From Alphaproteobacteria bacterium (lineage in GTDB: Bacteria > Pseudomonadota > Alphaproteobacteria > SP197): a DNA stretch of 64,000 nucleotides. Of this stretch, positions 2,915 through 37,899 are shown one piece after another (the stretch's first letter is position 1; every line of letters starts with the position of its first letter). The notes under the pieces were generated by a model. That model ran no database searches, was not told the DNA's origin, and worked only from the letters and a program-made list of their open reading frames with translations. The translations under genes were made by a program, and so were the position numbers. Location of the stretch: NCBI GenBank assembly GCA_964291265.2, contig OZ219747.1:736001-800000 (forward strand), read 5' to 3'.

Positions 2915-5261
2915 CTTTCAAAGGGTCGGACTTGTATAGGTGATTCGTTTCGTGCATGCTGCGTGCATGCAGGTTGGTCTCCGCCATTTCGATTCGCAGA
3001 CGCTTGACTGGTTTGCCGGCGCGTTGCGCTCCGCCGACGCCACCCGTCACGGTCTGGCACGCGAGCTTTGCGAGCGCACCGGCTGGCGCAACGCGCTCGG
3101 CCGTCCGTGCCTGTCGGCGGCGGCGAAGGTGCTGCCGGCGCTCGCCGAGCGCGTGGGGTTGGAGCTTCCGCCGCCGCGGAGCGTGCCCGATCCGACCGTC
3201 GTGCCCGCCGTCCCGGCCGGTGACGTCCCCGACACCAAGCTGGTCTGCCTGCTGGAGGATCTCGGCCCGGTCTCGCTCGAACCGGTGGGCGACGCCGACG
3301 ATCGCCGTCTCTGGGAGGCGATGATGGCGACGCACCACCCGCTGGGATGGACGCGCTCGCCCGGCGGCCAGGTGCGCTACTGGATCCGCTCGCAGCGCCA
3401 CGGCACCCTCGGCGGGATCGGCTTCGGGTCCGCGACCTGGCAGTTGCGGGCGCGGGATGAGTGGATCGCATGGTCCGCCGACGCCCGTGCCGCCAACATC
3501 GAGCGTGTGATCTGCGGTCATCGGTTTCTCCTGCTTCCCGGCGTTCGGGTCTACGGACTGGCCTCCCGGGTCCTGCGCATGGCGGCGGAGCGCATCGCCG
3601 ACGATTGGGAGGCCCGCTACGCGGTGCGCCCGGTGGCGGCCTACACTCATGTCGGTGCGGAGCACAGCGGCTATTGCTACCACTGCGCCGGCTGGACCGT
3701 GGCCGGGCGGACCAGCGGGCGCCGCGGCGAGGTTGGCACGGTGCGGGTCCTGGCCCTGGAGAGCAGCTGGCGGACGGTGCTCCACGGGACACAGCGCCGT
3801 CCACTCGGCGCCCTCGCGGGCGTCTATGACGGCACTGACGCGGACTGGGCGGAGCGGGAGTACGGACGCACGCGCCATACCGACGGTCGGGTGCGGCGAC
3901 GCATCGTTGACATGGGCCGGGCCTGGATGAAGAACATGGGGGAGGACCTGCCGATCATCTTTCCCGAGAAGGCGGAGCAGAAGGCCGCTTATCGGTTGCT
4001 GTTGAACCCGAGGGTATCCATGGAGCACGTTCTGGAAGCGCATGTTGAGGCGACCGTGGAGCGTTGTCGGACAGAGCCTCTTGTCCTGGCGATACAGGAC
4101 ACGACGGCGATCAACTACAGCGGCCTGGAGGCCACGAAGGGTCTGGACAAGCTCGGCGGCGGCGGCAAGGGGAGCGTCGGCATCCTCGCCCACGCCGGTC
4201 TGGCGGTGACGTCGGAGGGCCGGCCGCTGGGCCTGTTCACGATGGATGCGGCCTTTCGGCAGGAGCCTGGGGAGGACAGTCAGCGCTGGGTCACCGGGCT
4301 CGAGCGGGCCCGGGAGCTCGCGGCGGCCTGCCCGGACACGCGTGTCGTCTCGGTCTGCGACCGCGAGGGCGACTTCTGGGAACTGCTCGCCCATGCCGCG
4401 GACGCCGGGGCCGCGCTGCTGGTGCGTGCGAGCCGTTCGGCGAAACAGCGCGTGCGGACGCCCGACGGCAAAAAGAAGTGCCTGTGGAAGCATGTCGCGG
4501 CCCGGCCGCTGGTCGCGGTGACGGAGCTGACGATCCCGGCCGCTGGCGGCCCGCGCGCCCGCAAGGAGCGCGTCGCCCGTCTCGAGATCCGCACGGCACA
4601 GGTCGAGGTGGCGCCGCCGCAAAAAGAGCGCGACGCGGAGCCTGTGTCCATGTTCGCGGTCTCGGCCAGCGAGGCCGGAACCGGTGACGGCGACGAGGCC
4701 CTGCACTGGCTGCTGATGACCACCGAGCGCCCGGCACCAGGGGAGGCCGAGGCCGTGCACGCGGCGACCGTCCTGGGCTGGTACCGGACGCGATGGAGCA
4801 TCGAGACCTGGTTCCGCACGCTGAAGACCGGGACCCGGATCAAGGACCGCCGGCTCGACAGGGCCGACGACCTGAAGACGTGCCTTGCCTTCGACGCCGT
4901 CACCGCCGTCCATGTTGCCGACCTGACCGTGCTTGCGCGCGAGCGTCCCTTGACCCCGGCGAGCGAGGTGTTTGCCGAGGAGGACATCGACCTGCTCCGC
5001 ACGCTGCTGGAATCCCAGGGTCACCGGGAGGTCCGGGCGATGGGCGATGTCCGTGCCGTCGTCATCGGCCTTGGGCGCCTCGTCGGGTGGCATCCCACGC
5101 CGCGCCAGACGCTCCCGGGAGCGAAGAAGCTCTGGCAGGGTCTCGAAAGGCTGAACTGGGCGATCCAGGTGCGTGACGCACTTGGCGCAAGAAGGCGGCG
5201 CGAAGCACTCGGTGAGAGAAGGCGGGAGTAACATCCCTATACACGCGTGGGTGATTGAAAG
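2915..5261 (+). mobile_element. IS4-family insertion sequence (copy A)
   Basis: Imperfect TIRs CTTTCAA...TGTATA at both ends; 9-bp target duplication GCCTGCGAC at 2906-2914 and 5262-5270. Confidence 0.85.
2967..5231 (+). CDS. IS4-family DDE transposase with N-terminal DUF4338 (DruA-like) domain
   Basis: LAIQDTT, CDREGD and YRTRWSIE..RTLK (YREK) motifs; N-terminal ARDEWIAW, RFLLLP, LASRVL. Confidence 0.9.
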   Translation: MQVGLRHFDSQTLDWFAGALRSADATRHGLARELCERTGWRNALGRPCLSAAAKVLPALAERVGLELPPPRSVPDPTVVPAVPAGDVPDTKLVCLLEDLGPVSLEPVGDADDRRLWEAMMATHHPLGWTRSPGGQVRYWIRSQRHGTLGGIGFGSATWQLRARDEWIAWSADARAANIERVICGHRFLLLPGVRVYGLASRVLRMAAERIADDWEARYAVRPVAAYTHVGAEHSGYCYHCAGWTVAGRTSGRRGEVGTVRVLALESSWRTVLHGTQRRPLGALAGVYDGTDADWAEREYGRTRHTDGRVRRRIVDMGRAWMKNMGEDLPIIFPEKAEQKAAYRLLLNPRVSMEHVLEAHVEATVERCRTEPLVLAIQDTTAINYSGLEATKGLDKLGGGGKGSVGILAHAGLAVTSEGRPLGLFTMDAAFRQEPGEDSQRWVTGLERARELAAACPDTRVVSVCDREGDFWELLAHAADAGAALLVRASRSAKQRVRTPDGKKKCLWKHVAARPLVAVTELTIPAAGGPRARKERVARLEIRTAQVEVAPPQKERDAEPVSMFAVSASEAGTGDGDEALHWLLMTTERPAPGEAEAVHAATVLGWYRTRWSIETWFRTLKTGTRIKDRRLDRADDLKTCLAFDAVTAVHVADLTVLARERPLTPASEVFAEEDIDLLRTLLESQGHREVRAMGDVRAVVIGLGRLVGWHPTPRQTLPGAKKLWQGLERLNWAIQVRDALGARRRREALGERRRE

Positions 5262-5289
5262 GCCTGCGACCTCGCCAACCGGTCCGGAT

Positions 5290-6935: not shown

Positions 6936-7042
6936 GTGTGTTGCGGCCCGCCTGCGGATGGGTTACGGATTGCACTGACGGGTTCGCTGCGGTCGTGCGG
7001 GCGCGGCGGCCCGGATTTCGTGACGAACGGGAGGGTGCGGTC

Positions 7043-10000
7043 ATGACGCGGACGCCAGGCGATGTCGGGGTGCATGACCTGCGGCTCTGCGGGCGGGGCG
7101 TGAGCACCTCACGCACGCGCGAACCCCAGAACTTCGTACCCCCCCCCCCCCTCAAGACTCCGGGCGCGGGGCTGAGCCGGTGGGCGCCTTCGGGAGACCC
7201 GCCCGCCGCCTGAAGGCGGGACTCGCCGCCCTCTTCCTCATTACGCTGGCCGCTGCCCTCGCGCCACAAGTCGCGCAGGCGCAAGTGACCGTTACCCTCA
7301 CCGCCACGCCGGGGCCGGGGCAGGTGACACTCACATGGACCACTTCTTCGCCGACGCCAGCCGGGTTCCTTGTTACAAGACTCTCTCATAGACCCGCCGG
7401 TGGAAGCTACCAGAGTAAGACACTGACTAGCGCGAACTCCGGCAGCTACACGCTGACCGGGTTGACACCTGGCACGTCCTACGACTTCTTTCTCAGCAAT
7501 AACTGGTCCGGTCATGGCCAGGTGGATTCGAATACAGTTTCCGCGACCCCGACGGCGGTCACGACGCTCGCCGCGCCGACGAGCCTGACGGCGACGCCCG
7601 GCGGCCCCGCGCAGGTGTTGCTGACGTGGACCAAGCCGACTGGCACGATCACCGGCTACAAGCTGCGCTACGCCAAGACGCCGTCAAAGGCCAGCGCCAC
7701 CTGGGGTACCATGACGGGTTCGGGCGCGAACACCGTGAGGCACATGGTGACGGGCCTGGACAATGGCAGCGAATACAGTTTCATGATCCGTGCGGTGAAC
7801 GCCTCCGGCGACGGCGCCGCCACGGACTGGGTGACGGCGACGCCTGCGAACAGCTGCCCTGGCGTGGGAGCACCGACGAACCTGAGCCTTGCGCCGCGTT
7901 CGGACGGGTTTGCCGTCACCTGGACGGCGCCGACCGATGTACTCCGCAACGGCTGGGAATTGTCTTACAAGAAGACCGGGGGCAGTTCGACCTCTGTCAC
8001 GATCTCGAATGCCGCCGCGACCAGCCACACGCTGACCGGCCTGGAGGCCGGCACCGAATACGAGATCGCTCTTCAAGCAACGCATCCTTTCAATCCCGAT
8101 CCTACTGCGTCATGTCCTCCAGGCTCCCGCGCAAAAGCCACCGGCACGACCACGGCCGCTGCCACCGCCGGGGTGACGATCTCGCCGACATCGCTGACGG
8201 TGGAAGAGGGGAGCAGCGAGACCTACACGGTGAAGCTGGACAAGGCGCCCTCGGCGAACGTGACGATCACGGTGGGCGGCGCATCGGGCGAGGTGACGGT
8301 GGCGGGTTCACCGTTGACCTTCACGCCAAGCAACTTCAGCACCGCGCAGACGATCACGGTGCGTGCCGCAGCCGACGACGACACGCTGGACGACACGGCG
8401 ACGCTGACGCACGCGGCGTCGAGCACCGACACGGACTACGGCGCCTCGCTCGACATCGACGATGTGGACGTGACGGTGACGGACACGACGCCGATCCTGC
8501 AGCTTCTGACCGACCCGGCGGCGGTGACCGAGGGGACGGCGATCAGCCTGACGGTGACCTCCGACAAGGCGCAGACGGGGGACCTGACGGTGAGCATGGT
8601 GCTGTCGGACCGTGGTTCGAGCGGTTTCGATGCGGACGACATTACCGGCACGCTGGGCCCGCGCGCCTTCATCGTGGCTTTTGGCAACACTGCCAGCACG
8701 ACGGGCACGGTGACCATCCCGACCAGCACCGATTCGACTGTGGAGGGCGCGGAGACCTACCGCATCACGCTGGAAGGCGGTGCCGGCACCTACAAGGTCG
8801 GCACCGATGCGACCGCCGACGGCACGCTGAACGACGGCACGACCGCTTCCGTTCCAGCCGCACCGGCGGGCCTGTCGGCGGAGGCGGGCAACGCGCAGGT
8901 GAAGCTGACGTGGACCGATCCGGACGACGATTCGATCACGCGGTATCGGGTGCAGCAGAGGAAGGGGACCGCCGCCTGGGGCAGTTGGACCGCGATTCCC
9001 GGTTCGGACGCCGACACGGTGAGCTACACGGTGACGGGTCTGACGAACGACAGCGAGTACCGCTTCCGCATCCGGGCGCGGAACAGCGGCGGCAACGGCG
9101 CCGCGTCGGCGGTGGTGGAGGCGACGCCGTCGGCGTCGGCGGCGGTTCCCAAGCCGGTGCTGAGCGCCGAAGCGGGTTACGCCAGGGTCACCCTGAGCTG
9201 GAGCGCGCTGTCGGGTGTGACGGTAGCGAGCTGGGGCTATCAGTACAAGCCCGCGGGCGGCAGCTGGATCAGGACCCGGACGGTCACGGGCGGCAGCACG
9301 ACGAGCACCACGGTGACGGGACTGACGATCGGCACGGAATACACGTTCCGGCTGTTTGCGGCAGTCAGTCCCGGGGTGCAGTCGGTGTGGTCGGACCAGG
9401 TGAAGGCGACGCCGACGAATACGGTTCCCAAGCCGGTTCTGACGGCGGCAGGGGGCGATGCCTCGGTCACCCTGAGCTGGAGCGCCTTGACGGGCATTCC
9501 GATCACGAGCTGGGGCTATCAGTACAAGAGCACGGGCGGCTGGAGCACGACCACGACGCTCACGGGCGCAAGCAGGACGAGCGTCCGGGTGACGGGTCTG
9601 ACGAAGGGCACGGACTACACGTTCCGCCTGTTCGCGGCGGTCCGTCCCGGGGAGCAGTCGGTGTGGTCGGATCAGGTGACGGCTAAGACCGATCCGGCGG
9701 CCCCGGTGCTGACGGCGGCGACTTCGACGACGAACGGGCAGATCGACCTGACCTGGACCCATGCCGGCGGCTCGAACGAGTTATCGGATGCGGACGACTA
9801 TGTGAAAGACGCGGCCAAGTTCCATTGGTGGAGAGCGCAGACCCGGCTGAAGGGGGCAAGCACCTGGACGGATCACAGTCTCAACCAGGCGAGTGCCAGA
9901 CAGAATCCGGGCTCTCGCAACAATCGGCTTCTGCTGAACTATCCTGACGGGGCATCGGTCGAGGTCCGGGTTCGGGCGACGGGCTATCGCATGGCGGGGG

Positions 10001-13000: not shown

Positions 13001-13101
13001 ACCGCATGGGCGCGGGACTCTCCCTCGGCCTCGAGGGCGCGCACCGGCCGGGGCCGGTCAGCGAAGACAGCCTCATGCTGCGCGGCGCCCTCAACTGGTA
13101 G
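7043..13101 (+). CDS. Giant autotransporter adhesin (FN3 and Ig/Calx-like repeats, C-terminal beta-barrel); leader out of frame at a poly-C tract
   Basis: 1973-aa ORF 7180-13101 with signal-like LAALFLITLAAALAPQVAQAQ, FN3 motifs and terminal W; the RBS-preceded ATG at 7043 is in another frame. Confidence 0.85.
7139..7151 (+). repeat. C13 homopolymer, candidate phase-variation tract
   Basis: 13 consecutive C between ATG 7043 and the main ORF. Confidence 0.8.
9145..9690 (+). repeat. Tandem duplicated FN3 module (about 275 bp x 2) in the autotransporter
   Basis: VPKPVL..VTLSWSAL..SWGYQYK..YTFRLFAAV..QSVWSDQV occurs twice with high DNA identity. Confidence 0.85.
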
Positions 13102-13421: not shown

Positions 13422-13454
13422 GACCAGACGCCTCGGGTCCCGTCAACGACGCCA

Positions 13455-14601: not shown

Positions 14602-14619
14602 GCTGGGCTCCTTGGGTTT

Positions 14620-21865: not shown

Positions 21866-22867
21866 CTTTCAACCGGACGCTGTCAACTCTGCCCATTCCA
21901 GCATATCGAGTTCGCACGCCATCCAGTCGATTCAGACATCCTGACCCTGGTCACGGGCGTACTCCCTCATCGCCCAGTCGGTCCTGTCATCACCGACAAG
22001 GGGCGCCGCCCGGCCCATGACACGCTCGGGCTCCCGGCACAGCACGGCGCGCCAGTCAGACGACAGGGGATTCTTCCATACGGCGCGCTTGACACCCTGG
22101 ACCCGGGAGGCCGACCCGAGGTCATCTTCTCACAACGCTCCCAGCCCGCCGCCCGGTAGCTCGCGCCACTGTGCTCGGGACCCACATACGTGTAGGCCAG
22201 AACCGGCGTCACGCCGTACTTCTTATGCCAGTCCGCGGCCAGACGCCGGCAGGCACAGCCCAGGGCATGGGAGGCCAACTCCTTCACATCCACCGATGGA
22301 AGAATCAGGAAGCGATCATTGTTGACGATCTCGCCGAGGTGGGCGACACGGGCTCCCTGGGACCAGCCGATGAAGTCGTCGCTCAGCCTTCTGGTGCCAA
22401 CTCGCCGCACCAAACACCAGGCCGCCGAGGCGACCGTGGCGCGACGAGGTGATCCAGTAGCTCACCCGGGCTCCGGGTGCGCACGCCTCGCCTTCGGGAT
22501 GCCAGGTCGCCATCATCGAACGGGCCAGGCGCTTGTCCTCGCCCTCGCCCACAGGCTCCAAGGTGACCTCTCCAAGGTCCTCCAGAGAACAGGCGAGGAG
22601 CTTGTCGGGATAGTCCCGCTCAAGGGTGTCGGCGCCGGTGCCGAAGGCATCAGGCCTTGGTGCAGGAAGGGCGATGTCGAGCGACGCAGCAAGGTCAGGC
22701 AGGGCCGCACGCGCCGAGGCAAGACAGAGCTCGCCCTTCGCGTTGCGCCACTCCTCGCGCTCGCACAATCCCCGCGCCAGAGACGAGCGTGTGCTGCCCT
22801 CGGCAGCCGACGCCGCCTTCAGCCAGTCAACCGTCGTCGCAGACAGATGTCGAAAGCCGATCCTCAT
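21866..22867 (-). pseudogene. Truncated, frameshifted DUF4338-IS4 transposase related to copy A
   Basis: MRIGFRHLS..LARGLCEREEWRN..CLASA homologous to the 2967 N-terminus; VNNDRFLILP..LASHAL; DDE part missing. Confidence 0.8.
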
Positions 22868-23070
22868 GGACCACTATGCAAGGTCTCATGAAACGAGATT
22901 CAACAACGTCAAGAAGAAAGCGCAGGGAAGGGGGAAGTGTATGCCTTGCGGTTCCGGTTCGAGAACAGTTCGCCCTGAGATCACGGTTCACTGCCAACTT
23001 CCCGGTTGCAGTCATGCCGACCAGCTTTCCGACGATAGGCAGTCAGGCACGACTCTTCCTATTGTCATGA

Positions 23071-24041: not shown

Positions 24042-24078
24042 TGTAAGCGTTCGGTCGCGCAGTGATTGTTGGTGATAT

Positions 24079-24422
24079 TCACCGGTTGAGGATGAGTTTC
24101 CAGTCTTTGCGGAGAGGCCTCAGCCAGATGTCCTTTTTTTGGTTTGTCGAGTTTCCTGTGCGTATCGTAGCGTCCGCGCCCCTTGGTGGTGCCGACATGG
24201 ATCCAACCCGACGCCTTGTAGACGGCGCCTGTGTAGCGCGGTGCATGGCCAGAAAGGCGACACTCGCCATCATGTTCTTGAGGCCCCGTCGGGCTTGTAT
24301 CAGCCGGTCTCGCGGCAGAAGGCGCGGGCGATGGCCGCACGGGTGGGGTGCTGGGTGATCAGGGAGCGCAGCTCCATCTCGTGCGCGGTGAAGTCACGGC
24401 CGTCGTAACGGCACTCGATCAC
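24079..24422 (-). pseudogene. Stand-alone DUF4338-like passenger gene of the outer IS66, internally deleted
   Basis: RYDGRDFTAHE..TRAAIARAFCRETG* joined to YTGAVYKASGWIHVGTTKGRGRYD..K.IWLRPLRKDW; GTG overlaps the transposase stop. Confidence 0.75.
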
Positions 24423-24502
24423 CCCGGTTCCATGAGGTCCCTTCGACGCTCCGGGGTCATCGACCATGGCAGCCACGGGTCGAGGTCATCCGGCGGCTTG
24501 CC

Positions 24503-26931
24503 CTACCTATTAGTCACAAATCGTGCAGGGCGCGGTCATGTCCTTCCGACGTCGGATCCAGATCGAGGGCCTCGAGCAGGCATTCATAGGCCAGGGCAGC
24601 GGTGGCCAGTCGCGGATAGCCATGCCACATCGTCTGGTTGCCCGGCGCCGGATCATGCTTGCGGTCCAGATACCCGCCGAGGATCGCCACCAGCTTCACC
24701 GCCGCCCCCAGCGTGTCGGGCGGGTCCAGCCGGTATCGCCGGGCATAGTCGCCGAGGAAGCGGAGTTCCAGGTCCGAGAACAGGCAGTCGGGCTTCATCG
24801 TCGGCACATCCCGCCCGAGCAGGGTCATCAGGGCAAGACGCCAGGCGATCACGGCGTGGATGGTGATCTGCCGTTCCAGGCGGCAGGCCTTGCGCGTCGC
24901 CAGGTGCTCCACCCGGCAGCCGGACTTCAGCACCCGGAACCAGCATTCGATCCGCCAGCGCAGCGCGTACCAGCCGACGATCTCCTGGGCCGCTTCGGCG
25001 TGGTCCACAGGAAGGTCGGTCAACAGGAACCATTCCACCGGAGCTTCCCCGGCCGGCGGGGCCGTCTCGAGGAGATGCAGCGCGGTCACGGCCACGGGCG
25101 CGGCATCGGGGCAGCCAGCGGTCGCCGGCAGCGTGGTCGACAACCAGCGCAACTCCAGCACCGCGTTCCGCCGGGCAGTGCGGCCGGGCTGCTTCTTGCG
25201 CCCCGAGGACTTCGGCCGGGCCGTCAGGCGGGGTATGTCGATCTGCATGGTGCCGCGGCAGGCAGACGTACGTAGTCGGGTGAACAGCTTCGCAGCCCCG
25301 CGCTTGAGAACCCGGTCATGTCGAGCCCGCACCAGCATCGACAGACGGCGATGCTGCCGGCACCGGTCGAACAGTTCGAAGAAGTCCGCTTCCCGGTCCA
25401 TCACGCACACGACCTTCACCCCGGTCGTCCGGGCCGCGAGGTCCGCGATGTCGTCGAGACCGTCGAGCCAGCGCTGCGACGTGCGCCGGGACATCTCGAC
25501 ATCCTCGCCCGAACCGGTCTTTGCCCGGGGGCGGGGAGGAGCGTCGAAGGCAAGACGCGCCACCCCCAGCGGCAGGCCTTCGCCGCTGACAACGTAGCTG
25601 GCGTGCAGGTGCAGGCCCAGGGTCTGCGAGGCCGTCTGGTTCGTGCCGATGATGCCCAGACCGTCGCAGCCCGGACGGGTCGCGAAGTTCAGGTCCGTCC
25701 CGTCCTGAATGCACAACGCCACCCGCTGGCCGCACATCCGCTGCACCGTTCGTTGACGGTGCGGCGCCAGGATGTTCGCCGGGGTCACCGCCGACGTCTC
25801 CGGCTGATCCAGGAACCGATAATAGGCCCGGACACCGGCAGGATCCGGGCGCGCCAGACCGCTGTAGGACGACATCGGACTCTCTCCCTGTCTTCGTGCA
25901 ATCTCCACCAGGCGCGCACTCAGACGCCGGTCGCCGATCGGCGCTCCCCCGAACTCGTGGTGCGCCCACGCCGAGGCGTCCAGACCCTCCCCCGGGGACA
26001 GGGCCGGCATCGGCTCCGCCACCCCCAGCTTGTGCCGCCAGTCCCGGTCCAGAACGTACATGTACACGGCCTTGACGCTCTCGGCCATCTCGCGCGCGCG
26101 GTCCTGACGGCCTCGGCCCCGGGTGAACCCCACGAGCTGCCAGTTCGCCGCCCGCAGGCTCGCACCGTCGCGCGTCGGGTCGACATAGGTCTCGACCAGC
26201 CATGGCAGGAACCCGTAGCGCTGCGCAACATCGGCGCCCAGGCGAGACAGGCACATCGACAGCGTCTTCGACGCAAGGTTCGCAACCGGCACCCGGATCA
26301 GAAACCGGCTCATCGACAGCACCCGGTGTCGCTCCGCACGACGCCGGTCGGCATCCCAGCCGATCCAGGCATCCCGATCCGCCACCTTCAGCGCCGCTGC
26401 GGCAAAGCCGAAACCGCCGAGACAGCCGTGAGCGGAATCCACCAGATAGCGCAGCTGATGACCGGCCAGAATGGGAGCGCCGAGAAAGTGCTCCCGCGCC
26501 ATCAGTTCGTTCCAGAGCGCCCGTTCGGCATCCGTGCGCACCAGCAGGATCCGCAGACCCTGGATCGCCGCCACGCTCGCCGGCACATCACGCGGCTTCT
26601 CCACCGCCTCGCCGAGCCGGCGGGGCGTTGCCCGACGCCGCTGACCGGAGGGCTCCGGCAAGCCCTCGATCCTGCCCTGCGATGCCAGCTGCTTCAGGGC
26701 CACGACACAGCTCGATACCCGCTCGCGTCCCCGTGCGTCCCGCAGGCCGAAGTGCCGGCACACTTCCAGCGCCAGGCGGTTTTGACTACTATCGCCGCTC
26801 TCGGTGACGATCGACTGCAGGCGATCGAGCTGGTCCTCAAGGACGCGTTTGATCGGAATGTGTGCTTCCATGCAGGGCAGGGTGCACCATCCGAATCATC
26901 TTGTCCAGCACGATTTATGACTAAAGGGCAG
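24503..26931 (-). mobile_element. IS4-family insertion sequence (copy B)
   Basis: TIRs CTACCTATTAGTCACAAATCGTGC / CTGCCCTTTAGTCATAAATCGTGC; 8-bp TSD GGCTTGCC at 24495-24502 and 26932-26939. Confidence 0.92.
24514..26871 (-). CDS. IS4-family transposase with N-terminal DUF4338 (DruA-like) domain
   Basis: RDAWIGW, SRFLIR..NLAS, VETYVD, AANWQLVG.TRGRGR; IQDGT, MDREAD, YALRWRIE..RVLK. Confidence 0.9.
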   Translation of the reverse strand: MEAHIPIKRVLEDQLDRLQSIVTESGDSSQNRLALEVCRHFGLRDARGRERVSSCVVALKQLASQGRIEGLPEPSGQRRRATPRRLGEAVEKPRDVPASVAAIQGLRILLVRTDAERALWNELMAREHFLGAPILAGHQLRYLVDSAHGCLGGFGFAAAALKVADRDAWIGWDADRRRAERHRVLSMSRFLIRVPVANLASKTLSMCLSRLGADVAQRYGFLPWLVETYVDPTRDGASLRAANWQLVGFTRGRGRQDRAREMAESVKAVYMYVLDRDWRHKLGVAEPMPALSPGEGLDASAWAHHEFGGAPIGDRRLSARLVEIARRQGESPMSSYSGLARPDPAGVRAYYRFLDQPETSAVTPANILAPHRQRTVQRMCGQRVALCIQDGTDLNFATRPGCDGLGIIGTNQTASQTLGLHLHASYVVSGEGLPLGVARLAFDAPPRPRAKTGSGEDVEMSRRTSQRWLDGLDDIADLAARTTGVKVVCVMDREADFFELFDRCRQHRRLSMLVRARHDRVLKRGAAKLFTRLRTSACRGTMQIDIPRLTARPKSSGRKKQPGRTARRNAVLELRWLSTTLPATAGCPDAAPVAVTALHLLETAPPAGEAPVEWFLLTDLPVDHAEAAQEIVGWYALRWRIECWFRVLKSGCRVEHLATRKACRLERQITIHAVIAWRLALMTLLGRDVPTMKPDCLFSDLELRFLGDYARRYRLDPPDTLGAAVKLVAILGGYLDRKHDPAPGNQTMWHGYPRLATAALAYECLLEALDLDPTSEGHDRALHDL

Positions 26932-27549
26932 GGCTTGCCGCCGTTCTGCGCGCAGGCCTCAAGCCACTCATGAAGCCAGCGCCGAACATTGATGTTGTTC
27001 ATGGCAAGGGTGCCGATGACCGAGTACATGATGGCGGTGAAGGCGGCGCCTTCCTCGCTGTCGGAGCCGAAGCTCAGCTTTCTCGCGGTCACCGCACCCC
27101 GGAGGGTTCTCTCGGCAAAGTTGTTGTCCATGGGCACCTGGGGGTGGTCGACAAAGACGCACAGTCCCTCGCGGTGACGGATCAGGGAACGCAAGGGCTT
27201 CGCTTCGCGTGCACCCTCGGGCAAGGCGTCGAGTTCCTCCTGAGCCTGCCTGAACAGCGCCTCGACAGCCGCACGAAGGTCCTTCTGCAGGGCATTGAAC
27301 CTCGCTGACTGACGCTTGCGTGCGGGATCGTAGTGCTTCAGCCGTTGCCCATTCAGTGTGTAGATCAGCGCGATCCTGTCGAGCCACCTGTCGCACCACT
27401 CTTCCAGCCCCTCTTGGCCTGCCGCAGCCTCGATCACATCGCGCCTGGAGTGCGCCCAGCAAAGGCAGAGGATCACCTTGCCATCAAGCTCGCGCTCCAG
27501 TTTCCTGTAGACCACGTAGCGGTCGCAAACAAGGAAGACGAGTAACTAC

Positions 27550-29028
27550 TCACCCCTTGTTAGGGTCTGGTTGTCCGTAGTGCTGGTTGAGGATGTCTAC
27601 GGCCTTTCCGTCGAGGGCGATGTGGATGGCGACGTGAGGGTTGTAGCCGAGTGCGTCCATGGTGGTGAGGTAGCTTGAGCCGCGGCACCATGCCTTGGCG
27701 TGGGGCATGGTGCGGAAACATCCGGACACCTTGATCTTGACCTTTGTCATCCTGATCTTCTGCTCTCCGGTATTATTTGTGAAACTGACATTGGGGTCCT
27801 TCATGAAGCGCAGGACGGACTTCTCGTGTTTCACGAGACGTTCATGCAGGTTGTGCGCGTCGGACTTTGCGATGCGTCCACGTTTTCCTTTCGTCCGTGG
27901 CGGGATGTCGGGCAGTTCCTTGGCGCCCTGGGTGAGGATGGTGCGGTAGCGCTTGCGCACGGCCCGGCGGTCGGCCTCGTTCAAGGTCTTGGATGCGCTC
28001 TTGTTGACCCTGCGGGAGACCTCGCGCAGTAGGCTTTTCATCAGTCGCGCCCAGCGGTAGCCGTTGGACTCGACGACGAAGGTCAGTTCGCGCAGGAGAT
28101 GGCTGCCGCACAGTTGGTGGCGGCATTGATCGTAGCCCATGTAGGCCGCCCAGCAGTCGTGGATCAGGACGCCCTTGTAGCGCGGGATGATGCCGATCTC
28201 TTCGATCGCCTCCCGGCCGCGCTTGGGGTGCGGGAACTTGCACGTCAGGGTGCCGTCGGTGACGACATGGAGCCATTGGGTCTTGCCGGCGACCCGGAAG
28301 CCGGTCTCGTCGACATGCAGGGCCGGTTGTTGCAGGAGATGGGCCACGGCGGCCTCCTCCCATGATGCGAGGGCATCGTGAAAGCGCCGGACATAGCCGA
28401 GGCAGGTCGCCTCGGAGAGCTTGATGCCGGAGATCGCGTGCACGAGCGAGACGGCACGACGCAGGGACAGCATCTGGGCGATCAGCAGGTTGATGACGAG
28501 GGCCTGGATGCTGACGCCGTACTGCAGGGGGCCCGGCATGTTGTCTGGGAACCGGCCCTTGGTCCGGGCCCGGCACTTCGGACATTCCTTGATCTCGGCT
28601 TCGACGCGGCGCTCGACGACTTCGAATACGATGTCGTAGAGGACGCGGCACTCCCGGTCGACGGGGTCGACGTCGTGGAGGTCGGCGCCGCAGGCGTCGC
28701 AGGCATCGACGACGATCGTCTCCTCGACGGTGGTCGTGCGCAGGTTGTCGCCCGTCTGCTGGTTCGGCTTCGGGCCCTTGCCGTGGCTCCCGGTGCGCCT
28801 CGCGCTCTCGTCCTTGTCAGTCTGCGATGGCGGCAGACCGGAGTTCCGGCTTGTCTTGCGTGTGATCTTCTCCATGAGCACGGTCAGCAACAGCTTTATC
28901 AGCATCAGCATGCCGCGGAAGAGCTCCTCGCACTCCTGGTTGACCTTGCCCTGCTTGCGGAGATCCTGGAACTGCTTCTGGAAGACGTCGGCCTCCTGGC
29001 GCACAGACGTGCCGTTCACGCTCGCCAT
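27550..29028 (-). CDS. IS66-family transposase
   Basis: TSRNSGLPPS, CDACG..CPKC, LHVDETGFR, IHDCW, CGSHLLREL, FTNN.GEQ.IR..K...K.SGCFR. Confidence 0.92.
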   Translation of the reverse strand: MASVNGTSVRQEADVFQKQFQDLRKQGKVNQECEELFRGMLMLIKLLLTVLMEKITRKTSRNSGLPPSQTDKDESARRTGSHGKGPKPNQQTGDNLRTTTVEETIVVDACDACGADLHDVDPVDRECRVLYDIVFEVVERRVEAEIKECPKCRARTKGRFPDNMPGPLQYGVSIQALVINLLIAQMLSLRRAVSLVHAISGIKLSEATCLGYVRRFHDALASWEEAAVAHLLQQPALHVDETGFRVAGKTQWLHVVTDGTLTCKFPHPKRGREAIEEIGIIPRYKGVLIHDCWAAYMGYDQCRHQLCGSHLLRELTFVVESNGYRWARLMKSLLREVSRRVNKSASKTLNEADRRAVRKRYRTILTQGAKELPDIPPRTKGKRGRIAKSDAHNLHERLVKHEKSVLRFMKDPNVSFTNNTGEQKIRMTKVKIKVSGCFRTMPHAKAWCRGSSYLTTMDALGYNPHVAIHIALDGKAVDILNQHYGQPDPNKG

Positions 29029-29693
29029 GACGACGCCTCCACCGCCATGACTGCCGCCAGCACGGCGAGCCGCTCGCCTTCGGGCATCGTCCGGTAGCGC
29101 CGCGCCCAGCTCTCTGCGAGGCGCTTGATGCGCTGGCGGTCGATCGAGTTCCTGCCCGCACACGTATGCCAGTGCGGCCGGCCCGGTGCGAAGTTGAACC
29201 ACAGCTTCTCGGTGACAACGCAGGCCTGGTTGTTGACCTGGATCTCGGCCGAGCGCCAGCCGGCGAGGTGCGTGTCGTAGAGCCGCGAGGGATAGCCGGA
29301 GATCATCACCTGGCAGGGCAGCGACGTCAGGATGTCAAGGAGCGCAACATGGTCGTCGTCCGTGCAGTCGAAGCGGTAGCGGCGCTGCGACCGGCGCGTC
29401 GACTGCACGTAAGGCGGGTCGCAGTAGACCAGCTCGCGGCCCTGGAAGGCGAAGGTCTCGAGAAAACGCAGGGCGCAGCCTTGGTGAAGCTCCACCGGAT
29501 AGTCACAGCGGAAGGTGTCGATCGCCCGTCGGTTGAGGTCGATGCCGATGCTGCGTAGCGCCGGAGGCTTGCGCTTCATGATCGCGCCGCCCCCAAGGAA
29601 CGCCTCGATGTACACGTCATGCGGCGGCATGGCCGCGACGATCGCCTGGCTCAGACCCGTCGTCGCCTTCGATCCGTACCATGCCGCCATCAA
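29016..29693 (-). CDS. Small DNA adenine methyltransferase (Dam/D12-like)
   Basis: YGSK, YIEAFLGGGA (SAM binding), YCDPPY (catalytic), VMISGY, TE.LW.N. Confidence 0.9.
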   Translation of the reverse strand: MMAAWYGSKATTGLSQAIVAAMPPHDVYIEAFLGGGAIMKRKPPALRSIGIDLNRRAIDTFRCDYPVELHQGCALRFLETFAFQGRELVYCDPPYVQSTRRSQRRYRFDCTDDDHVALLDILTSLPCQVMISGYPSRLYDTHLAGWRSAEIQVNNQACVVTEKLWFNFAPGRPHWHTCAGRNSIDRQRIKRLAESWARRYRTMPEGERLAVLAAVMAVEASSWRA

Positions 29694-30931
29694 TATCTCC
29701 GACGCAAACCGCCCCGATGGCCAGCATGTAGAGTGCCCCTCCTACAATGTCAAGCGCATATCTCCAGAGGATTGGAAAGGCAGCCAACCGCTGTGGATGA
29801 TTGCATCATCACGGGGACAAAACCTGGTCATACAAGGCCGGAACGTGGAGCTGAAGCCGAAGATCGATCCGCTTCTTGTCAGTCGGAACACGCACATCCG
29901 ATCATCGGCAGCGAGCAAGTGAAGGCGGCAAGAGAAAATGCCGGATCCGAACCCGTCAGGAAAAACGATCCGTCATCAGTAGGGGGTGAGTAGTTACGAA
30001 GACGACACCTTTGGTGGAGGCGAACAGCACCATGGCCACCCGGGTGCTGCGTGACGGGTCGATGAGGAAGAAGACGGAGTCGGCGCTGACCGCGGTCCAC
30101 AGCCAGGCCTTCTGCGAGCGCCCCGAGGCCTTGAGGGACTGGATGCGCCAGCTGGTCTCGTCGCCGTGGCGCACCGTCAGCCGGTTCTGATGATCGAGGA
30201 TGGCCTGAGCGAGAGGCGCGAACATCGGCGTCATCTTCTTCATGCCGCCAGCGATCGTTCCCGGCGCCATCGGCAGTCCCTGGTCTTCCAGCCATCGCGA
30301 GACCCGGCGCAGGGGACGCAAGCAGGCGAAGCGCTCATAGAGCACGCATGCCCAGACACTGATGCCGAAGGGGGTATTCGCAAGCAAGCGCAAAGGTGGC
30401 GGCGCGATGATCTCCGCAGGCGCCGACGAACACTGACAACCACGGCGCCAACGCCCACGTTCAATCCGCCGGATATGAGCCTTGACATGGACCTCCATGA
30501 TCGAGGTCTCGTGGCTGCCGTTGGCCACATAGGGCTCGCCGCAACACGGGCACGTGCGCTGCGATGCCGGTGGATCATGGCGTTCGTGCTTCTCCTTGAG
30601 CTTCGGACGCGGAGTGCGCCCGTGGCCGCTCTTGCCGGGTTGCTGACCCCGCTTGTTCCCGGTGCCTTCCTTCTTCTTCCGTTTCTCGCTCTTCGACCCG
30701 AAGCGCGCCGTCGCGTGCTTGGCACGCGTCCCGCGGAGATTCCTCAGCTCGCTCGCCTGTTCAGCGTTCTTGAGCTTCAGAGCGTCCCTTTCCTGCTCCA
30801 GCGCCTCCGCTCGGACCTGTCCACGCTTCACCTCCCGGCGAGCCTCCTTGAGCTGATCACGAGTGCGGTCGAGATGAAACTTGAATGTGCCCGCACGGGC
30901 ACGGGCAGAATTCTTCGCACGGCGCAGGTCA

Positions 30932-31591
30932 GACGCGGTAGGGATGCGCATTGCTGCGCACCCCCCGCGCAGATCCGGACGTGGACGTTAATCCATCCGG
31001 CTCCTACCTCGGGTACTGGACGGCAAACCACTGGACTAGCCTGCGGCTTCCCGTATCCGATCCGCCGCCTGTGGCACGCTTGCCCGACACTGCGTTCGGT
31101 GCGTGCTTTAGCGTCCCGGATTCCCCTTGGTTGAGGCCCTTTCCTCCAGCGACTCCGCAGAAGCTAACGCTTCCTTGTTCGCCGCCTTCACAGGTACTAC
31201 GGCCTCATCCGACTTCTTCAAACCGTACATCATAGGCTTCGGTTTTCTCCTTCCCCATGCGGTCCCGCCACAACCGGCGGGACGGTTTGAAGATCTCCCA
31301 GGGTCCCAACAGAAGGCGTGCGGACGTGCATGGGTTCTCTGACACCGCGGGGCTCGCCGACATCTCACCAAATCGATGCCTGCGATGTTGCCTTCGACCA
31401 ATGCGAAAGCCTCGGCACCCCGGATGATAGCTTTTTCGGTGCTCATTAGCCCTGCCCATCCGTACCGCTACCGACGCTTCGCCTGCCCCCTCGCGGGAAC
31501 CGACGCACGGCTCGCGGAGAAACGTGGTTTGGTTACTCCTTCGTTCCAGGGGACTTTCACCCCCTACCTTCCGCCAGTTCGCCTGGCACAC
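30932..31591 (-). ncRNA. ORF-less group II intron (IIB-like), 660 nt
   Basis: 5' GTGTG; domain V GAGCCGGATG...CACGTCCGGATCTG; domain VI ending CCCTACCGCGTC; only the ends of the RT ORF remain (..FAVQYPR*). Confidence 0.88.
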
Positions 31592-31869
31592 CGCATGCTC
31601 GCTTCCGCCGCATCCGCACGAACCCGCTCCGCCTCATAGAGCGCACGCCAGTCAGGCGCCTCGCATGACAAGGCCACTGACGCCCGACATAGGCCGTCAC
31701 CACCTCCCGTCAGCTGCTGTGTCGCTCCGCGCGTCTCGGCAAAAGTCTTCATGGCCTCGACCATAATCGAGACCAAACGAGTTTACCAGCTCTTTCTCAG
31801 ACGATAGTCAGCAAGACCCAAACCAACCAAAATCAGCCATCACCGAACGGCCGAACGCTTACCTGCCAT

Positions 31870-33505: not shown

Positions 33506-33518
33506 AGGAGACGAAACG

Positions 33519-34823
33519 ATGGCACTGTTATGGGGTACCTCCTTGGCCGAAACGCTTACAGGCGGGTCGGGAGCAGACGAGATCTGGGGCTGGGGCGGCG
33601 ACGACATCCTGAGAGGCGGCGGCGGCAACGACGAGCTCTACGGTGGCGACGGCGACGACACGCTGGAAGGCGGCGACGGCAACGACGATCTCTACGGCGA
33701 GGCCGGCGGCGACACGCTGAAGGGCGGCGCCGGCAATGACCTCATGTACGGCGACGAAGGCGACGACACGCTGGAAGGCGAAGCCGGCAATGACACGATG
33801 TTCGGCGGCGCCGGCGACGACACGATGTCAGGCGGCGCCGGCAACGACATCTTGGCTGGCCGTGAAGGCGACGACACGCTGAAAGGCGGCGCCGGCGTTG
33901 ACTACGTGCACGGCGAAGCCGGCAACGACACGGTGGAGGGCGGCGCCGGCAACGACTTCCTGACGGGCGGTGCCGGTAACGACACGTTCGTCTTCAACTC
34001 CGGCGACGGCGACGACACCATTTGTTGTGGTTTCGAGAAGGGTAAGGACAAGATCAAGTTCGTCGGCGTGAGCGGCGCGACCCAATTCAGTGATCTGGCG
34101 ACCCCCACTGCATCCAATGTTCTCAACGATGATAACGAAAAGATCGGCACCAAGTTCGTTGTGGCCTACGGCAGCGGCGCCAACGCGGGCACGATCACGT
34201 TAACGGTAGCCGGCTCGGGGACGGTAACCCTCGAAGCGACCGACTTCGAATTTGACACCACGGGTTTGCAGAGATTCGGCAATCCACACAAGGCGCAGAC
34301 GCTGACGGGCAGCGACGGCAACGACAAGCTCCGCGGCGGCGCGGGCGAAGACAAGCTGACGGGCGGCGCGGGCGACGACACGCTCCGCGGCGGCGCCGGC
34401 GACGACACGCTGTCGGGGGGCGACGGCGACGACAAGCTCCGCGGCGGTGCGGGCCACGACACGCTGACGGGCGGCGCGGGCGACGACACGCTCCGCGGCG
34501 GCGCGGGCCACGACACGCTGTCGGGGGGCGACGGCGACGACACACTCCGTGGCGGCGCGGGTGACGACACGCTGTCGGGGGGCGACGGCGACGACACCTT
34601 CGTCTATCGCGGCCAGGTGGGTAACGACACCATTGCAGACTTCGAGGCGGGGGACATCATCCGGCTGAAGTCCATTGACGGAGTGGACGCGTTCTCTGAT
34701 CTCGCCATTGATCATCTGACGATCGGGGCGGGAGACGGGTTCACGATCGCCTTCGGCGACGATGTGCTCACCATCATGACCGACCTGGACACGCTGACGG
34801 CCGAGCACTTCGACTTCGCCTGA
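33519..34823 (+). CDS. RTX/hemolysin-type calcium-binding repeat protein
   Basis: Two blocks of GGxGxDxLx nonapeptides (27-bp tandem units); AGGAG RBS; no N-terminal signal peptide. Confidence 0.9.
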   Translation: MALLWGTSLAETLTGGSGADEIWGWGGDDILRGGGGNDELYGGDGDDTLEGGDGNDDLYGEAGGDTLKGGAGNDLMYGDEGDDTLEGEAGNDTMFGGAGDDTMSGGAGNDILAGREGDDTLKGGAGVDYVHGEAGNDTVEGGAGNDFLTGGAGNDTFVFNSGDGDDTICCGFEKGKDKIKFVGVSGATQFSDLATPTASNVLNDDNEKIGTKFVVAYGSGANAGTITLTVAGSGTVTLEATDFEFDTTGLQRFGNPHKAQTLTGSDGNDKLRGGAGEDKLTGGAGDDTLRGGAGDDTLSGGDGDDKLRGGAGHDTLTGGAGDDTLRGGAGHDTLSGGDGDDTLRGGAGDDTLSGGDGDDTFVYRGQVGNDTIADFEAGDIIRLKSIDGVDAFSDLAIDHLTIGAGDGFTIAFGDDVLTIMTDLDTLTAEHFDFA

Positions 34824-35483
34824 TGCGTTGCGCTGCCTCCGCAGGGGTTGCGGTGTTCGGCCCGGCATCCGGAGAGGCCGTCGGCAGTGCCGCCCCGCGG
34901 GTGGCGTCCAAGAGTTTGTTCCTTACGTCGTCGCGATGCCTGTATTTCTCTTGGGTGGCCTCAGCCCAAGCCATGGTACCCACCACATGTGGTGTTGTGT
35001 GCCTAACGAAATGCCATGATTCGTGATCATACGCGACTTAAGCAACAAACTCCAGGGTCGCCGCCCCTGTGCACCGTCGACCGCAGTCTGATCACCGGTT
35101 GAAGCATCCCTGAGGATGGTCGCGCGCCATCCCCCTCAGACATGCACATGTTCGTGGTCGGTCTCGCCCGTGGTGCCGGCTTCCGGCCCCGCGACATGTG
35201 TAGACCGCTTCCGGGAACCGGCGAGCGTTGAGGACCGGAGACGGCGTGAACAGGACTCTTCCATTGTCGTCCCGGCGGTCGGCACATGCTGAACCTGGGG
35301 TGACGGTCGAGCTCGACCCGTGGCGCATGTTGAGCACCGCTCCGGGACCGCCTGGTGGAGGAGCGTCACGACCTGAAATGACACGGCGTCATCGCAAGGG
35401 GTTGAGCGCCATGTCGCCCTGGCGGGCGAGACCCAAGGTTGTGCGCTGGTCGGCCCGGCAACCGGGCCGAGTTCAGGCTTGCC

Positions 35484-37899
35484 CTGCCATGTCATGAAAA
35501 TTAGGTCTGGACGTGCCACTCGGTCTGCGCTAGCTTGCCGCCATGATGGCACGATCCAGCATTCTCCACACTCTGCGCGAGGACGGGGCCCGGGCGCGCG
35601 TTGCTGCCATCCTGTCGCGGGAGCAGCACTCTGGCCGTCGGGCTGCGAGCCGCCGGGTATGCGAGGAGTTTTCGTTCCGGGACGCGGCCGGGCGTTGGCA
35701 GCTGTCGAGTTGTCTGAAGGCCCTGACCACGTTGGCATTGTCGTATCCGGAGATCCGACTTCCGGCGGCGCAGGCTGCTGCCGTGGACAACTCTCCGCGT
35801 CTTCTTGACGGAGAAGTGCCGCTGCCGGTCGGGGTGCCGTCCCGTCTGTCCGGGATTGCGCAGGTGCAACTGTCGGTGGTGACCGAGGTTTCGGAGCGAA
35901 CGGTATGGAACACGTTGATGGCGCGCGAGCATCCTCATGGCATGACGACGTTTGCCGGCTGTCAGGTGCGCTATCTTGTGACGTCGGAGCACGGGATCCT
36001 GGGTGCGGTCGGGATCTCGGCGGCGGCGTTGACGGGCGAGGCCCGCGATCGCTGGATGGCATGGACGCCGTCCCAGCGGCGGGATCATCTCCAGCGGGTG
36101 GTCTGTCTGAGTCGGTTTCTGCTTCGGGTGCGGTGCCGGCACCTGGCGAGCCATGTTCTGGGGCGACTTCTCCGGCGCCTACCGAGGGATTTCGAGGCCC
36201 GGTATGGGTTCCGTCCCCTGGTGGTGGAAACCTATGCGGACGAGGGCTATGCCGGGACCTGCCTGCGGGCTGCGAACTTCGTGTGTGCGGGGCGGACGAA
36301 GGGTCGGGGTCGTCAGGATCGTCACCATCGCGCTGCCAAGACCGTCAAGACGGTCTGGATGCGCGGTCTGGATCGGCGCTGGCGACGCAAGCTGGGAGTG
36401 GGTCCGGTCGACCCTGCCTGGTCGCTGGGACCCGGAGACGGTCTGGATGGTGCGGTGTGGGCGGCGAACGAATTCGGAGGGGCTCCCTTGGGTGACAAGC
36501 GACTGTCGGCACGCCTGGTGAAGAGTGCGGCTCTTCTGGCCTCCTGTCCCGGTTCCAAGATTCACGCGAGCACGGATGCCGACAACACGGCGATCAGTGC
36601 TTTCTACCGCCTGATCGAGAAGCCGGTGGAGAGTGCGGTGACGGTGGCGAACATTCTTGCTCCGCATCGGGAGCGCACGATCCGGCGCATCCAGGGTCAA
36701 ACGACCGTGCTGGCGATTCAGGACGGGAGCGACCTCAATTTCTCCCGGCGGCCGGGATGCGAAGGTCTTCAGGTCATCGGCAAGAACCAGACCTCCTCGT
36801 CGGCCCGGGGTTTGCACCTGCATGCGACGCTGGCGGTGAGCGAGACGGGGTTGCCGCTCGGGGTTCTGCGTCTGGGGTTCGATGCGGTGAAGCAGCGCTC
36901 CCCGGCGGCCGAGGAGCGGTTGAAGAGCCGACGCTGGATGGAAGGCTTCAAGGACATCGACGAAGCGGTTCGCGACATCGCAAGCACGACGCGCGTGATC
37001 TCGGTCTGTGATCGGGAAGCGGACTTCTTCGAGCTGTTCGATCATCAACGTCTCAACCCACGGGTCGGGCTTCTGGTCCGAGCCCGACATGACCGGGTTC
37101 TCGGCAAGGGGCGCGCAAAGCTGTTTGCAACCTTGAGCGCAGGCTCGCCCGACGGCGGCATCACCGTCGAGGTCGACGGCCTGAGCGAGCGTCCGAAGGC
37201 GAGCCGAACGAAGGCGCGTGCGGCCCGACGCAAACGCGTGGCTCAGTGCGCACTGCGGTTCCGCCGCGTGACCTTGCCCTCCACCCTCGAAGGCCGGGCG
37301 CCGCTCGCCCTTTCCGGTGTCCACATCATCGAAACCGATCCTCCCGAAGGCGAGAACCCGGTGCAGTGGTTCCTGCTCACCACGCTCAAGGTGCGCAGCG
37401 CCGAGGACGCCGCCAGGATGGTTGGCTTCTACCTCCAGAGGTGGAAGGTCGAAGACTTCTTCCGCGTCCTCAAGTCAGGCTGCCGCACCGAGTTCCTGCT
37501 GTTCCGGACCGCAGAACGACTGCAGCGGGCCATCGCCATCAACGCCGTCATCGCCTGGCGCATCATGGTCATGACCCTGCTCGGACGGCAGGTTCCCGAC
37601 TGTGAGCCCGAGCTGATGTTCACCGATCAAGAGCTGAGCTTCCTGCGCGACTACGCCGCCGAGAAGCGCATGACGCCGCCCGACCGCCTCGGGGATGCCG
37701 TCCGCCTGGTGGCCCATCTCGGCGGGTACCAGGATCGCAAGCATGATCCCGAGCCCGGACACCAGATCATGTGGCACGGCGCGACCCGCCTGACCAGCGC
37801 CGTTCTTGGCCATCAAGTCGGCTTCCGGGCCGGACAGCGGCAACCCTTGCAACACATTCAGACCCTTGACGTCACGTCGTAATTGTCATTACTCGGCAG
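35484..37899 (+). mobile_element. IS4-family insertion sequence (copy C)
   Basis: TIRs CTGCCATGTCATGAAAATTA / CTGCCGAGTAATGACAATTA; flanks GGCTTGCC (35476-35483) and TGCTTGCC (37900-37907). Confidence 0.88.
35543..37882 (+). CDS. IS4-family transposase with N-terminal DUF4338 (DruA-like) domain
   Basis: RDRWMAW, LSRFLLR..HLASHVL, VETYAD.GYAGTCLRAANF; IQDGS, CDREAD, YLQRWKVE..RVLK. Confidence 0.9.
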   Translation: MMARSSILHTLREDGARARVAAILSREQHSGRRAASRRVCEEFSFRDAAGRWQLSSCLKALTTLALSYPEIRLPAAQAAAVDNSPRLLDGEVPLPVGVPSRLSGIAQVQLSVVTEVSERTVWNTLMAREHPHGMTTFAGCQVRYLVTSEHGILGAVGISAAALTGEARDRWMAWTPSQRRDHLQRVVCLSRFLLRVRCRHLASHVLGRLLRRLPRDFEARYGFRPLVVETYADEGYAGTCLRAANFVCAGRTKGRGRQDRHHRAAKTVKTVWMRGLDRRWRRKLGVGPVDPAWSLGPGDGLDGAVWAANEFGGAPLGDKRLSARLVKSAALLASCPGSKIHASTDADNTAISAFYRLIEKPVESAVTVANILAPHRERTIRRIQGQTTVLAIQDGSDLNFSRRPGCEGLQVIGKNQTSSSARGLHLHATLAVSETGLPLGVLRLGFDAVKQRSPAAEERLKSRRWMEGFKDIDEAVRDIASTTRVISVCDREADFFELFDHQRLNPRVGLLVRARHDRVLGKGRAKLFATLSAGSPDGGITVEVDGLSERPKASRTKARAARRKRVAQCALRFRRVTLPSTLEGRAPLALSGVHIIETDPPEGENPVQWFLLTTLKVRSAEDAARMVGFYLQRWKVEDFFRVLKSGCRTEFLLFRTAERLQRAIAINAVIAWRIMVMTLLGRQVPDCEPELMFTDQELSFLRDYAAEKRMTPPDRLGDAVRLVAHLGGYQDRKHDPEPGHQIMWHGATRLTSAVLGHQVGFRAGQRQPLQHIQTLDVTS

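Follow-up and report, generated by a model that had tools for sequence, protein, structure and literature searches.

Insertion sequences of the window and their predicted GNAT domain

The stretch of DNA analysed here (the window) comprises 64,000 nt of Alphaproteobacteria bacterium (assembly GCA_964291265.2, contig OZ219747.1, positions 736,001-800,000, forward strand) and holds several insertion sequences (ISs) whose transposases are fused or coupled to a conserved domain of predicted GNAT fold, resembling the DNA-modifying protein Mom of phage Mu. Three intact IS50-type elements, each from a different repeat family, encode a single fusion open reading frame (ORF) in which a match to PF14236 (DUF4338, or 'DruA'; 79-91 bits against a cut-off of 27) precedes the Tn5 DNA-binding and DDE domains (Table 1). 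All three ORFs pass the NCBIfam IS4 model NF033590 and contain the DDE/YREK motifs, which, together with the terminal inverted repeats (TIRs) and target-site duplications (TSDs) of 8-9 bp, place the elements in the IS50 group of the IS4 family. The first-pass annotation of this DNA had delimited three IS4 elements with TIRs and TSDs, encoding transposases of about 760-785 aa with an N-terminal extension similar to DUF4338/DruA. The element ends proved exact, with a TSD of 9 bp in the first element and of 8 bp in the other two, that of the third having a single mismatch, the ORFs are 763, 785 and 779 aa long, and PF14236 is above its cut-off in each. A relic marked at 21866-22867 likewise comes from a fourth IS50-type family, as a copy with a frameshift and an internal deletion, and extends slightly further. 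The true start of the first fusion ORF is probably the ATG at 2967, judging from the related family f3.

Sister copies elsewhere in the genome have distinct TSDs (8/9 for family f5, with 9-bp duplications, and 6/6 and 3/4 paired-end copies for the other two window families), and all three families have therefore moved recently. Families f4 and f9 favour near-palindromic 8-bp targets of the type GGC(T/A)(A/T)GNC, and their window targets (24495-24502 and 35476-35483) are both GGCTTGCC; the targets of f5 are GC-rich and 9 bp long. GATC sites are not common to the element ends.

Table 1. Features of the window, with positions counted from its first nucleotide
Feature	Position	Strand	Remarks
IS50-type (IS4 family) element, family f5, intact	2915..5261	+	TIRs, 9-bp TSD GCCTGCGAC
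Fusion ORF P0001 (763 aa)	2940..5231	+	N-terminal helical domain, Mom-like GNAT (~3252-3782), Tn5-type transposase
Relic of a fourth IS50-type family (f3)	about 21866..22920	-	GNAT frameshifted, transposase deleted
Outer IS66, single-transposase type	24043..31862	-	Ends GTAAGCGTTCGG, 8-bp TSD AATGGCAG, at abiEi/abiEii junction, three nested inserts
Pseudogene remnant of stand-alone Mom-like GNAT gene	about 24079..24422	-	GTG start overlaps IS66 transposase stop
IS50-type element, family f4, intact	24503..26931	-	8-bp TSD GGCTTGCC; in last codons of outer IS66 transposase
Fusion ORF P0002 (785 aa)	24514..26871	-	Helical domain 7-64, Mom-like GNAT ~100-283 (nt 26023-26574), Tn5-type transposase
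Inner IS66	27542..29997	-	Ends GTAACTACTCACCCC, 8-bp TSD TCGTCTTC
Inner IS66 transposase	27550..29031	-	Start overlaps end of Upf31-like gene
Upf31-like Dam-fold protein, 225 aa	29016..29693	-	FxGxG-like and DPPY motifs; 42% identity to pBP136 Upf31 over 220 aa
Predicted promoter	29722..29753	-	TTGACA, 17-nt spacer, -10 box, overlapping imperfect inverted repeat; conserved ahead of homologues
Outer IS66 transposase, 5' part	29956..30951	-	Remainder at ~26932-27541 and just below 24502
ORF-less group II intron in outer IS66 5' part	30931..31591	-	RF02005, 170 bits
IS50-type element, family f9, intact	35484..37899	+	8-bp TSD, one mismatch
Fusion ORF P0003 (779 aa)	35543..37882	+	Mom-like GNAT (~35846-36394), then Tn5-type transposase

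The genome (4.83 Mb in two contigs, 20% of it in repeats of at least three copies) contains 85 matches to PF14236 against none in 14 control genomes, so the occurrence is not due to chance. An iterated profile identified 104 loci, grouped into 10 multi-copy families and seven singletons. Six of these families are IS50-like, one belongs to another IS4 group, two are ISAs1 and one is IS66, where the domain is a separate gene. The domain lies just upstream of the transposase N-terminus at 36 of 45 IS50-like, 24 of 26 ISAs1 and all four IS4 loci. These elements share TIRs, TSDs of 8-9 bp, DDE/YREK motifs, Tn5 Pfam domains and NCBIfam matches with typical IS50/Tn5 IS4, other IS4, ISAs1 and single-ORF IS66 elements, but differ from them by about 300 extra N-terminal residues in IS50 and IS4, about 250 in ISAs1, and a coupled downstream gene in IS66. 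Many other multi-copy repeat families, which were not formally annotated, showed no GNAT locus.

GNAT-carrying ISs are real and widespread. A profile built from nine families matched 10,095 clusters at 50% identity (6,208 at 1e-10). A transposase domain of one of six lineages is present in 55 of the 72 long representatives scanned, which are the longer ones among the best 150 clusters: 40 are IS50-type, 5 ISAs1, 5 other IS4-like, 3 IS66 (C-terminal fusion), 1 IS630-like and 1 ISAzo13, the remainder being 1 with another domain and 16 without a second domain. The 76 nearest stand-alone relatives come from some 20 GTDB genomes, and every one of them lies directly behind an IS66 transposase. The domain family is present in 10 of 18 genomes of the same genus and in 20 of 300 genomes of the phylum; among the 27 phylum loci, 23 are IS-type (12 with the transposase seen, the rest fragments, contig ends or partly scanned) and 4 encode long non-IS proteins. 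On plasmids the stand-alone gene is seldom found (2 of 72,556 records). In a domain tree of 63 rows, obtained by a quick search with SH-like approximate likelihood ratio (SH-aLRT) support only, five changes of partner were counted, the minimum for six partner groups, compared with a mean of 17.5 after shuffling; each IS family thus seems to have acquired the domain once and kept it.

Some loci depart from these arrangements. At five (L222, L223, L226, L228 and L245) a stand-alone GNAT gene lies upstream of ORFs of the UPF0236 family, a transposase family, and upstream, not downstream, of IS66 transposases. The long non-IS proteins (L235, L236, L237 and L247), of 700 to more than 1100 aa, have a split PF14236 match and in one case a STAND-like NTPase; they are likely a defence-type branch of the family. 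Within the genome, three copies of IS50 family f6 (G000:C2:1247100, 2548700 and 3687900) share one frameshift in the GNAT domain, upstream of the transposase. A programmed shift was considered for ISAs1 family f0 and rejected, the common frameshift looking like an inherited mutation instead. At L013 (G000:C2:3295096-3298445) a 3.3-kb element that encodes a large serine recombinase interrupts a full-length stand-alone GNAT gene. No sign of a differing preference for nesting was seen, 25 of 66 flanks lying in repeats for the six clean-ended control sets and 40 of 107 for the GNAT elements; pooled Fisher values are invalid in this comparison, as 9 of 16 control sets had internal or composite ends and one duplicated a methyltransferase family. 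Replacement of the GNAT domain by a methyltransferase on IS50 elements was also rejected, the downstream ORFs there being IS66 transposases. Helicase-type loci with DUF1998/MZB occur at G000:C2:1715853, 2122749 and 2714849, two of them no more than about 5 kb away from IS copies that carry a GNAT, a closeness probably due to chance given 104 loci.

Predicted fold and active site compared with Mom

The AlphaFold model of P0002 residues 1-290 (predicted local distance difference test, pLDDT, 89.5) consists of a small helical domain and a GNAT domain. A Mom-type GNAT fold had been guessed from sequence patterns, and both structure searches bear the guess out: Mom (8bv8) was the top match in Foldseek (E 3.5e-6) and ranked first in VIA over 48,161 chains (Z 14.9, root mean square deviation 3.1, 162 residues aligned), the next GNAT reaching Z 12.5. 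The top structure matches listed for this predicted model are acetyltransferase-fold proteins, and the viral-structure matches include a Mom. In the Atlas, with PF14236 clusters excluded, Mom-containing clusters appear at 0.86-0.89, a lead only. No PDB chain sequence matched the GNAT part at E 10.

Mom moves glycine from Gly-tRNA to adenine N6; R111, S124 and R151 are essential, H58, Y59, D149 and Y159 matter, and a helix-turn-helix (HTH)-like insertion at 175-209 is required for activity (Silva et al. 2026, PMC13219725). By hhalign, Mom H58, R111, S124, D149 and Y159 correspond to H128, R189, S201, D231 and position 239 of the IS domain. In a set of 159 sequences, made up of the nine own families and the best 150 representatives of clusters at 50% identity, H is found in 158/158, R in 159/159, S in 155/159, D or E in 139/159 and Y in 124/159, and R at 234, the equivalent of R151 with an offset of one residue, in 101/159. 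H, R and S are all present in each of the 52 uninterrupted domains of the genome. The acyl-CoA loop, N-x-x-S, resembles that of Mom, with N198 in 112/159 and the canonical Q/RxxGxG/A in only 11/159.

Mom (PF25680) is thus the nearest solved structure, and the IS domain shares with it the predicted GNAT fold, the H58, R111 and S124 equivalents, the N-x-x-S motif and the location on a transposable element; Mom differs in being a late phage gene, the IS domain having an extra N-terminal helical domain and being fused or coupled to an IS transposase. The helical domain is present in the IS50, IS4 and IS66 versions and missing from those of ISAs1. Modelled alone from a single sequence (pLDDT 68), it gave a best Z of 5.5, with no fold assigned, and its Atlas matches are unnamed clusters.

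The nested IS66 elements and their accessory genes

The outer IS66 of the window is interrupted by an ORF-less group II intron, by the inner IS66 and by the second IS50-type element. GTAA ends, an 8-bp TSD and a DDE_Tnp_IS66 transposase assign these elements to the single-ORF IS66 type, the ISBst12 group. The first-pass annotation described the outer element as carrying the GNAT domain as a separate gene. The window copy is only a pseudogene remnant, whose frame is broken by a premature stop and the loss of 1 nt and whose GNAT core has been removed by a further deletion of 513 nt; two intact stand-alone genes (288 aa) exist elsewhere in the genome, at G000:C2:1405072 (to 1405938) and near C2:2127400. 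Among 31 classifiable copies of the outer IS66 (partial matches without the transposase end being omitted), 2 are intact, 2 are full-length but broken, 7 have the window deletion and 20 another deletion. The core is consequently lost in 27 of 31 copies, and GNAT is therefore not needed in cis; one deleted type has reached at least nine copies of about 99% identity. Conservation between genomes together with dispensability in cis within one would fit a trans-acting product or a need at host entry.

The intron of the window is common to about 10 near-identical copies of the outer IS66, and other copies have an insert of about 1.9 kb at the position matching 30147, apparently a full intron; splicing might restore the transposase message. 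The outer IS66 itself cuts an AbiEi/AbiEii toxin-antitoxin pair (23071-24041 and 31870-32685, minus strand) exactly at the stop/start junction, and abiEii at this locus is spread over two frames.

The inner IS66, with an exact TSD in 14 of 15 paired-end genome copies, carries no GNAT domain but a gene for a DPPY protein ('METHYLTRANSFERASE'), whose plasmid homologues include Upf31.0. Among its homologues DPPY is conserved in 85/85 and the FxGxG-like motif in 84/85. TTGACA occurs in 68 of 69 non-redundant upstream regions, followed in 58 by a -10 box at 16-18 nt, and the upstream consensus TTGACAACATAG-N10-CTATGCTG, of which the window has a variant at 29722-29753, holds an inverted repeat over both promoter boxes. 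Of the metagenome loci, 72 leave enough space downstream for a transposase gene, and in 57 of them the Upf31-type gene precedes an inner-type IS66 transposase; of the remaining 15, 12 were scanned and comprise six other IS66, two IS701-like, one IS4 and three that are not transposases or not assigned. The promoter-gene cassette is followed by an IS701-like transposase at two of the loci L142, L158 and L165 and by an IS4 transposase at the third. In the phylum, 1 of 300 other genomes matched the methyltransferase query at 1e-20 in a shallow first pass.

Upf31 of IncP-1beta plasmids resembles the IS66 protein in sequence, in Dam fold and in a TTGACA promoter running into a CAGCAT-type repeat; it differs in that the IS66 gene heads a transposase operon, with the operator consensus CAGCATAG...CTATGCTG against CAGCATCG in Upf31 (PMC11997246). 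Upf31 gave no methylation by DpnI/MboI or in SMRT (single-molecule, real-time) sequencing and repressed its own promoter (Elg et al. 2025, PMC11997246). The DPPY protein belongs to this family, whose tested member is a self-repressor that was negative in both methylation assays, and for that reason is probably a regulator: likely a Upf31-type autorepressor of the transposase operon and thus a second, separate accessory module. By this analogy autorepression has the better support, the alternative being that the operator is methylated locally, given the DPPY motif kept in 85/85. A precedent for the swap of Mom and Dam folds on a transposable element is known from Mu-like prophages, where non-specific adenine methyltransferases replace mom (PMC3299994); those are proven methylases, unlike the IS66 protein, a Upf31 homologue.

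These results modify the initial proposal that unrelated IS families each carry a DNA-modifying domain. The GNAT pattern is wider than claimed, extending over IS50-like, IS4, ISAs1 and IS66 elements, but the window IS66 GNAT is a pseudogene. A DPPY methyltransferase was correctly placed on the inner IS66, as a 225-aa protein overlapping the transposase start, but its family makes it probably a regulator. Of the three multi-copy IS66 families, one has a GNAT gene or remnant and two have the DPPY gene, and the statement that all carry DNA modifiers holds only partly.

Other features of the window include isolated IS-end fragments at 48334-48507 and 62493-62604, 94% identical to the inner IS66 end and 88% identical to the right end of the third IS50-type element, respectively. 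A 1973-aa protein has fibronectin type III repeats (7180-13101, plus strand), a long protein from this region having seven related ORFs in the genome, and a 434-aa protein (33519-34823, plus strand) is composed of RTX calcium-binding nonapeptide repeats, encoded by 27-nt tandem repeats.

Possible functions of the domain and their significance

We tentatively propose, as a close call that leans slightly against, that active DDE ISs of multiple families carry a conserved GNAT of predicted Mom fold which acylates DNA bases and helps the element to survive transfer. The GNAT would be made when the transposase is made and would acylate DNA bases, probably adenine, with a charged tRNA as the probable donor. 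Its product would act in trans and would not be needed on each copy, and the mark would aid the element's survival when it passes from host to host and would not drive the individual jumps. More doubtful, though still well worth considering, is the specific form in which ISs from five or more families bring along an enzyme of their own for tRNA-dependent hypermodification of DNA, which would write an aminoacyl-derived private mark against restriction or for control.

In favour of the proposal, the sequence shows the elements and their mobility, the fusion or coupling to the transposase, the conserved Mom-equivalent residues and the loss of the core from most IS66 copies; the fold is a prediction, and catalysis, the tRNA donor, the DNA substrate, action in trans and protection are inferred. 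Several observations weigh against the proposal. Loss in cis cannot separate protection from regulation, because other copies may supply either in trans. The domain is Mom-like in predicted fold and core residues, yet it lacks two marks of a Mom. PF25680 has no match in the window proteins or the whole genome, and its cut-off is reached by 1 of the 72 long representatives (27.6 against 27.1); where Mom has its HTH-like insert, the model and the profile alignment show a short loop rich in G and R. In sequence the domain resembles Mom weakly (14-15% identity, 65-75% probability in hhalign). D149, R151 and Y159, invariant in 121 Mom sequences, vary in PF14236 domains; at the seven sites compared, the window fusion proteins have H-P-R-S-G-E-Y, H-F-R-S-D-R-L and H-P-R-S-D-G-L. 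Substrate and donor are not predictable from the Mom structure (PMC13219725), and the toxicity described for Mom is hard to square with 52 intact domains, except at very low expression. No adenine motif was found in the target sites. The ratio of nonsynonymous to synonymous substitution (dN/dS), about 0.20 for the GNAT core and about 0.37 for the IS66 core in 17 pairs, would speak for selection on the domain, but these pairs have a single reference in common and were selected for their similarity to the GNAT gene, which biases the comparison; between five own IS50 families, identity is about as high in the GNAT (34-51%) as in the transposase (30-54%). The DPPY proteins, with conserved motifs and a non-methylating relative, indicate further that conserved motifs need not mean DNA modification.

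Dam methylation throttles transposition of IS10 and IS50, and the GNAT may likewise be a self-regulator that binds or locally marks its own ends or promoter and so restrains transposition. This is unlikely but carries real weight: the domain is tied to the transposase by fusion or coupling, its IS50, IS4 and IS66 versions have the N-terminal helical domain, all three multi-copy IS66 families carry a Upf31-like gene or a GNAT or remnant, suggesting interchangeable accessory roles, and the 27 GNAT-deleted against 4 full-length IS66 copies are as expected after loss of a brake. Yet no common operator was seen, by eye only, in the left ends of nine GNAT families, the IS66 GNAT gene is downstream of the transposase, and the helical domain has no known-fold match (best Z 5.5, low-confidence model) and is missing from ISAs1. 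Distinctly less probable is acylation of protein or RNA instead of DNA, whether of the transposase, a host factor or a charged tRNA as by GNAT toxins. Most GNATs act on proteins or small molecules, and such GNATs come next after Mom at Z 11-12.5; the Mom DNA-binding insert is missing, and a DndF-fused DUF4338 GNAT has been suggested to target proteins (PMC10853773). Against this, Mom leads them by 2.4 Z; the R111 equivalent, reported to be Mom-specific among GNATs, is invariant, and the canonical acyl-CoA loop is rare. No TacT/AtaT-type toxin occurs among the listed top matches, and no antitoxin gene within the elements.

The Pfam name of the family, DruA, and the long non-IS PF14236 proteins at 4 of 27 phylum loci, one with its STAND-like NTPase, would suggest anti-phage cargo, a Druantia DruA-like subunit kept for host benefit. 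This is very improbable, as the PADLOC DruA model matches weakly (three of six tested proteins, at E 4e-6 to 1e-3) or not at all, and the domain, whose tree follows the transposase, lies within IS ends that leave no space for further dru genes, not in a dru/dnd operon. The window copies stand alone inside the IS ends, and neither a Druantia type I operon with druB-E nor a full-length DruA match was found there. The least credible reading is that of an inert passenger or purely structural linker; loss from most IS66 copies and the family f6 frameshift in three copies would agree with it, and it is opposed by purifying selection, near-invariant active-site residues, the 10,095 clusters and one acquisition per IS family.

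A computational study of 2009 by Iyer, Tahiliani, Rao and Aravind reportedly linked Mom-like proteins to diverse bacterial transposase families and proposed that transposons modify DNA. No study of either module on ISs was found among titles and abstract starts, a search outside the ISfinder/TnCentral pages and the Aravind-group supplements, which may list fusions; the word DruA is absent from two Druantia/YprA preprints. The first-pass idea is not wholly new, since DUF4338 had already been named a GNAT in a Dnd context (Rakesh et al. 2024, PMC10853773). What the present genome contributes is the occurrence of four partner types together, the 27/31 loss pattern, and one or the other module on all three IS66 families.

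ISs are usually seen as a transposase and its ends. In the present case a large and conserved domain family has been built into the elements of five or more IS families. The chemistry of Mom was solved only in 2026, so the domain is now directly testable. Whatever the outcome, Pfam DruA matches in such genomes are no evidence of Druantia defence, and Dam methylase annotations on IS66 elements probably denote regulators. If the proposal of a DNA-acylating GNAT is true, about 10,000 clusters labelled DruA would be mostly transposon enzymes, and transposon-written DNA hypermodification would bear on horizontal transfer, restriction evasion and the calling of modifications from long reads.

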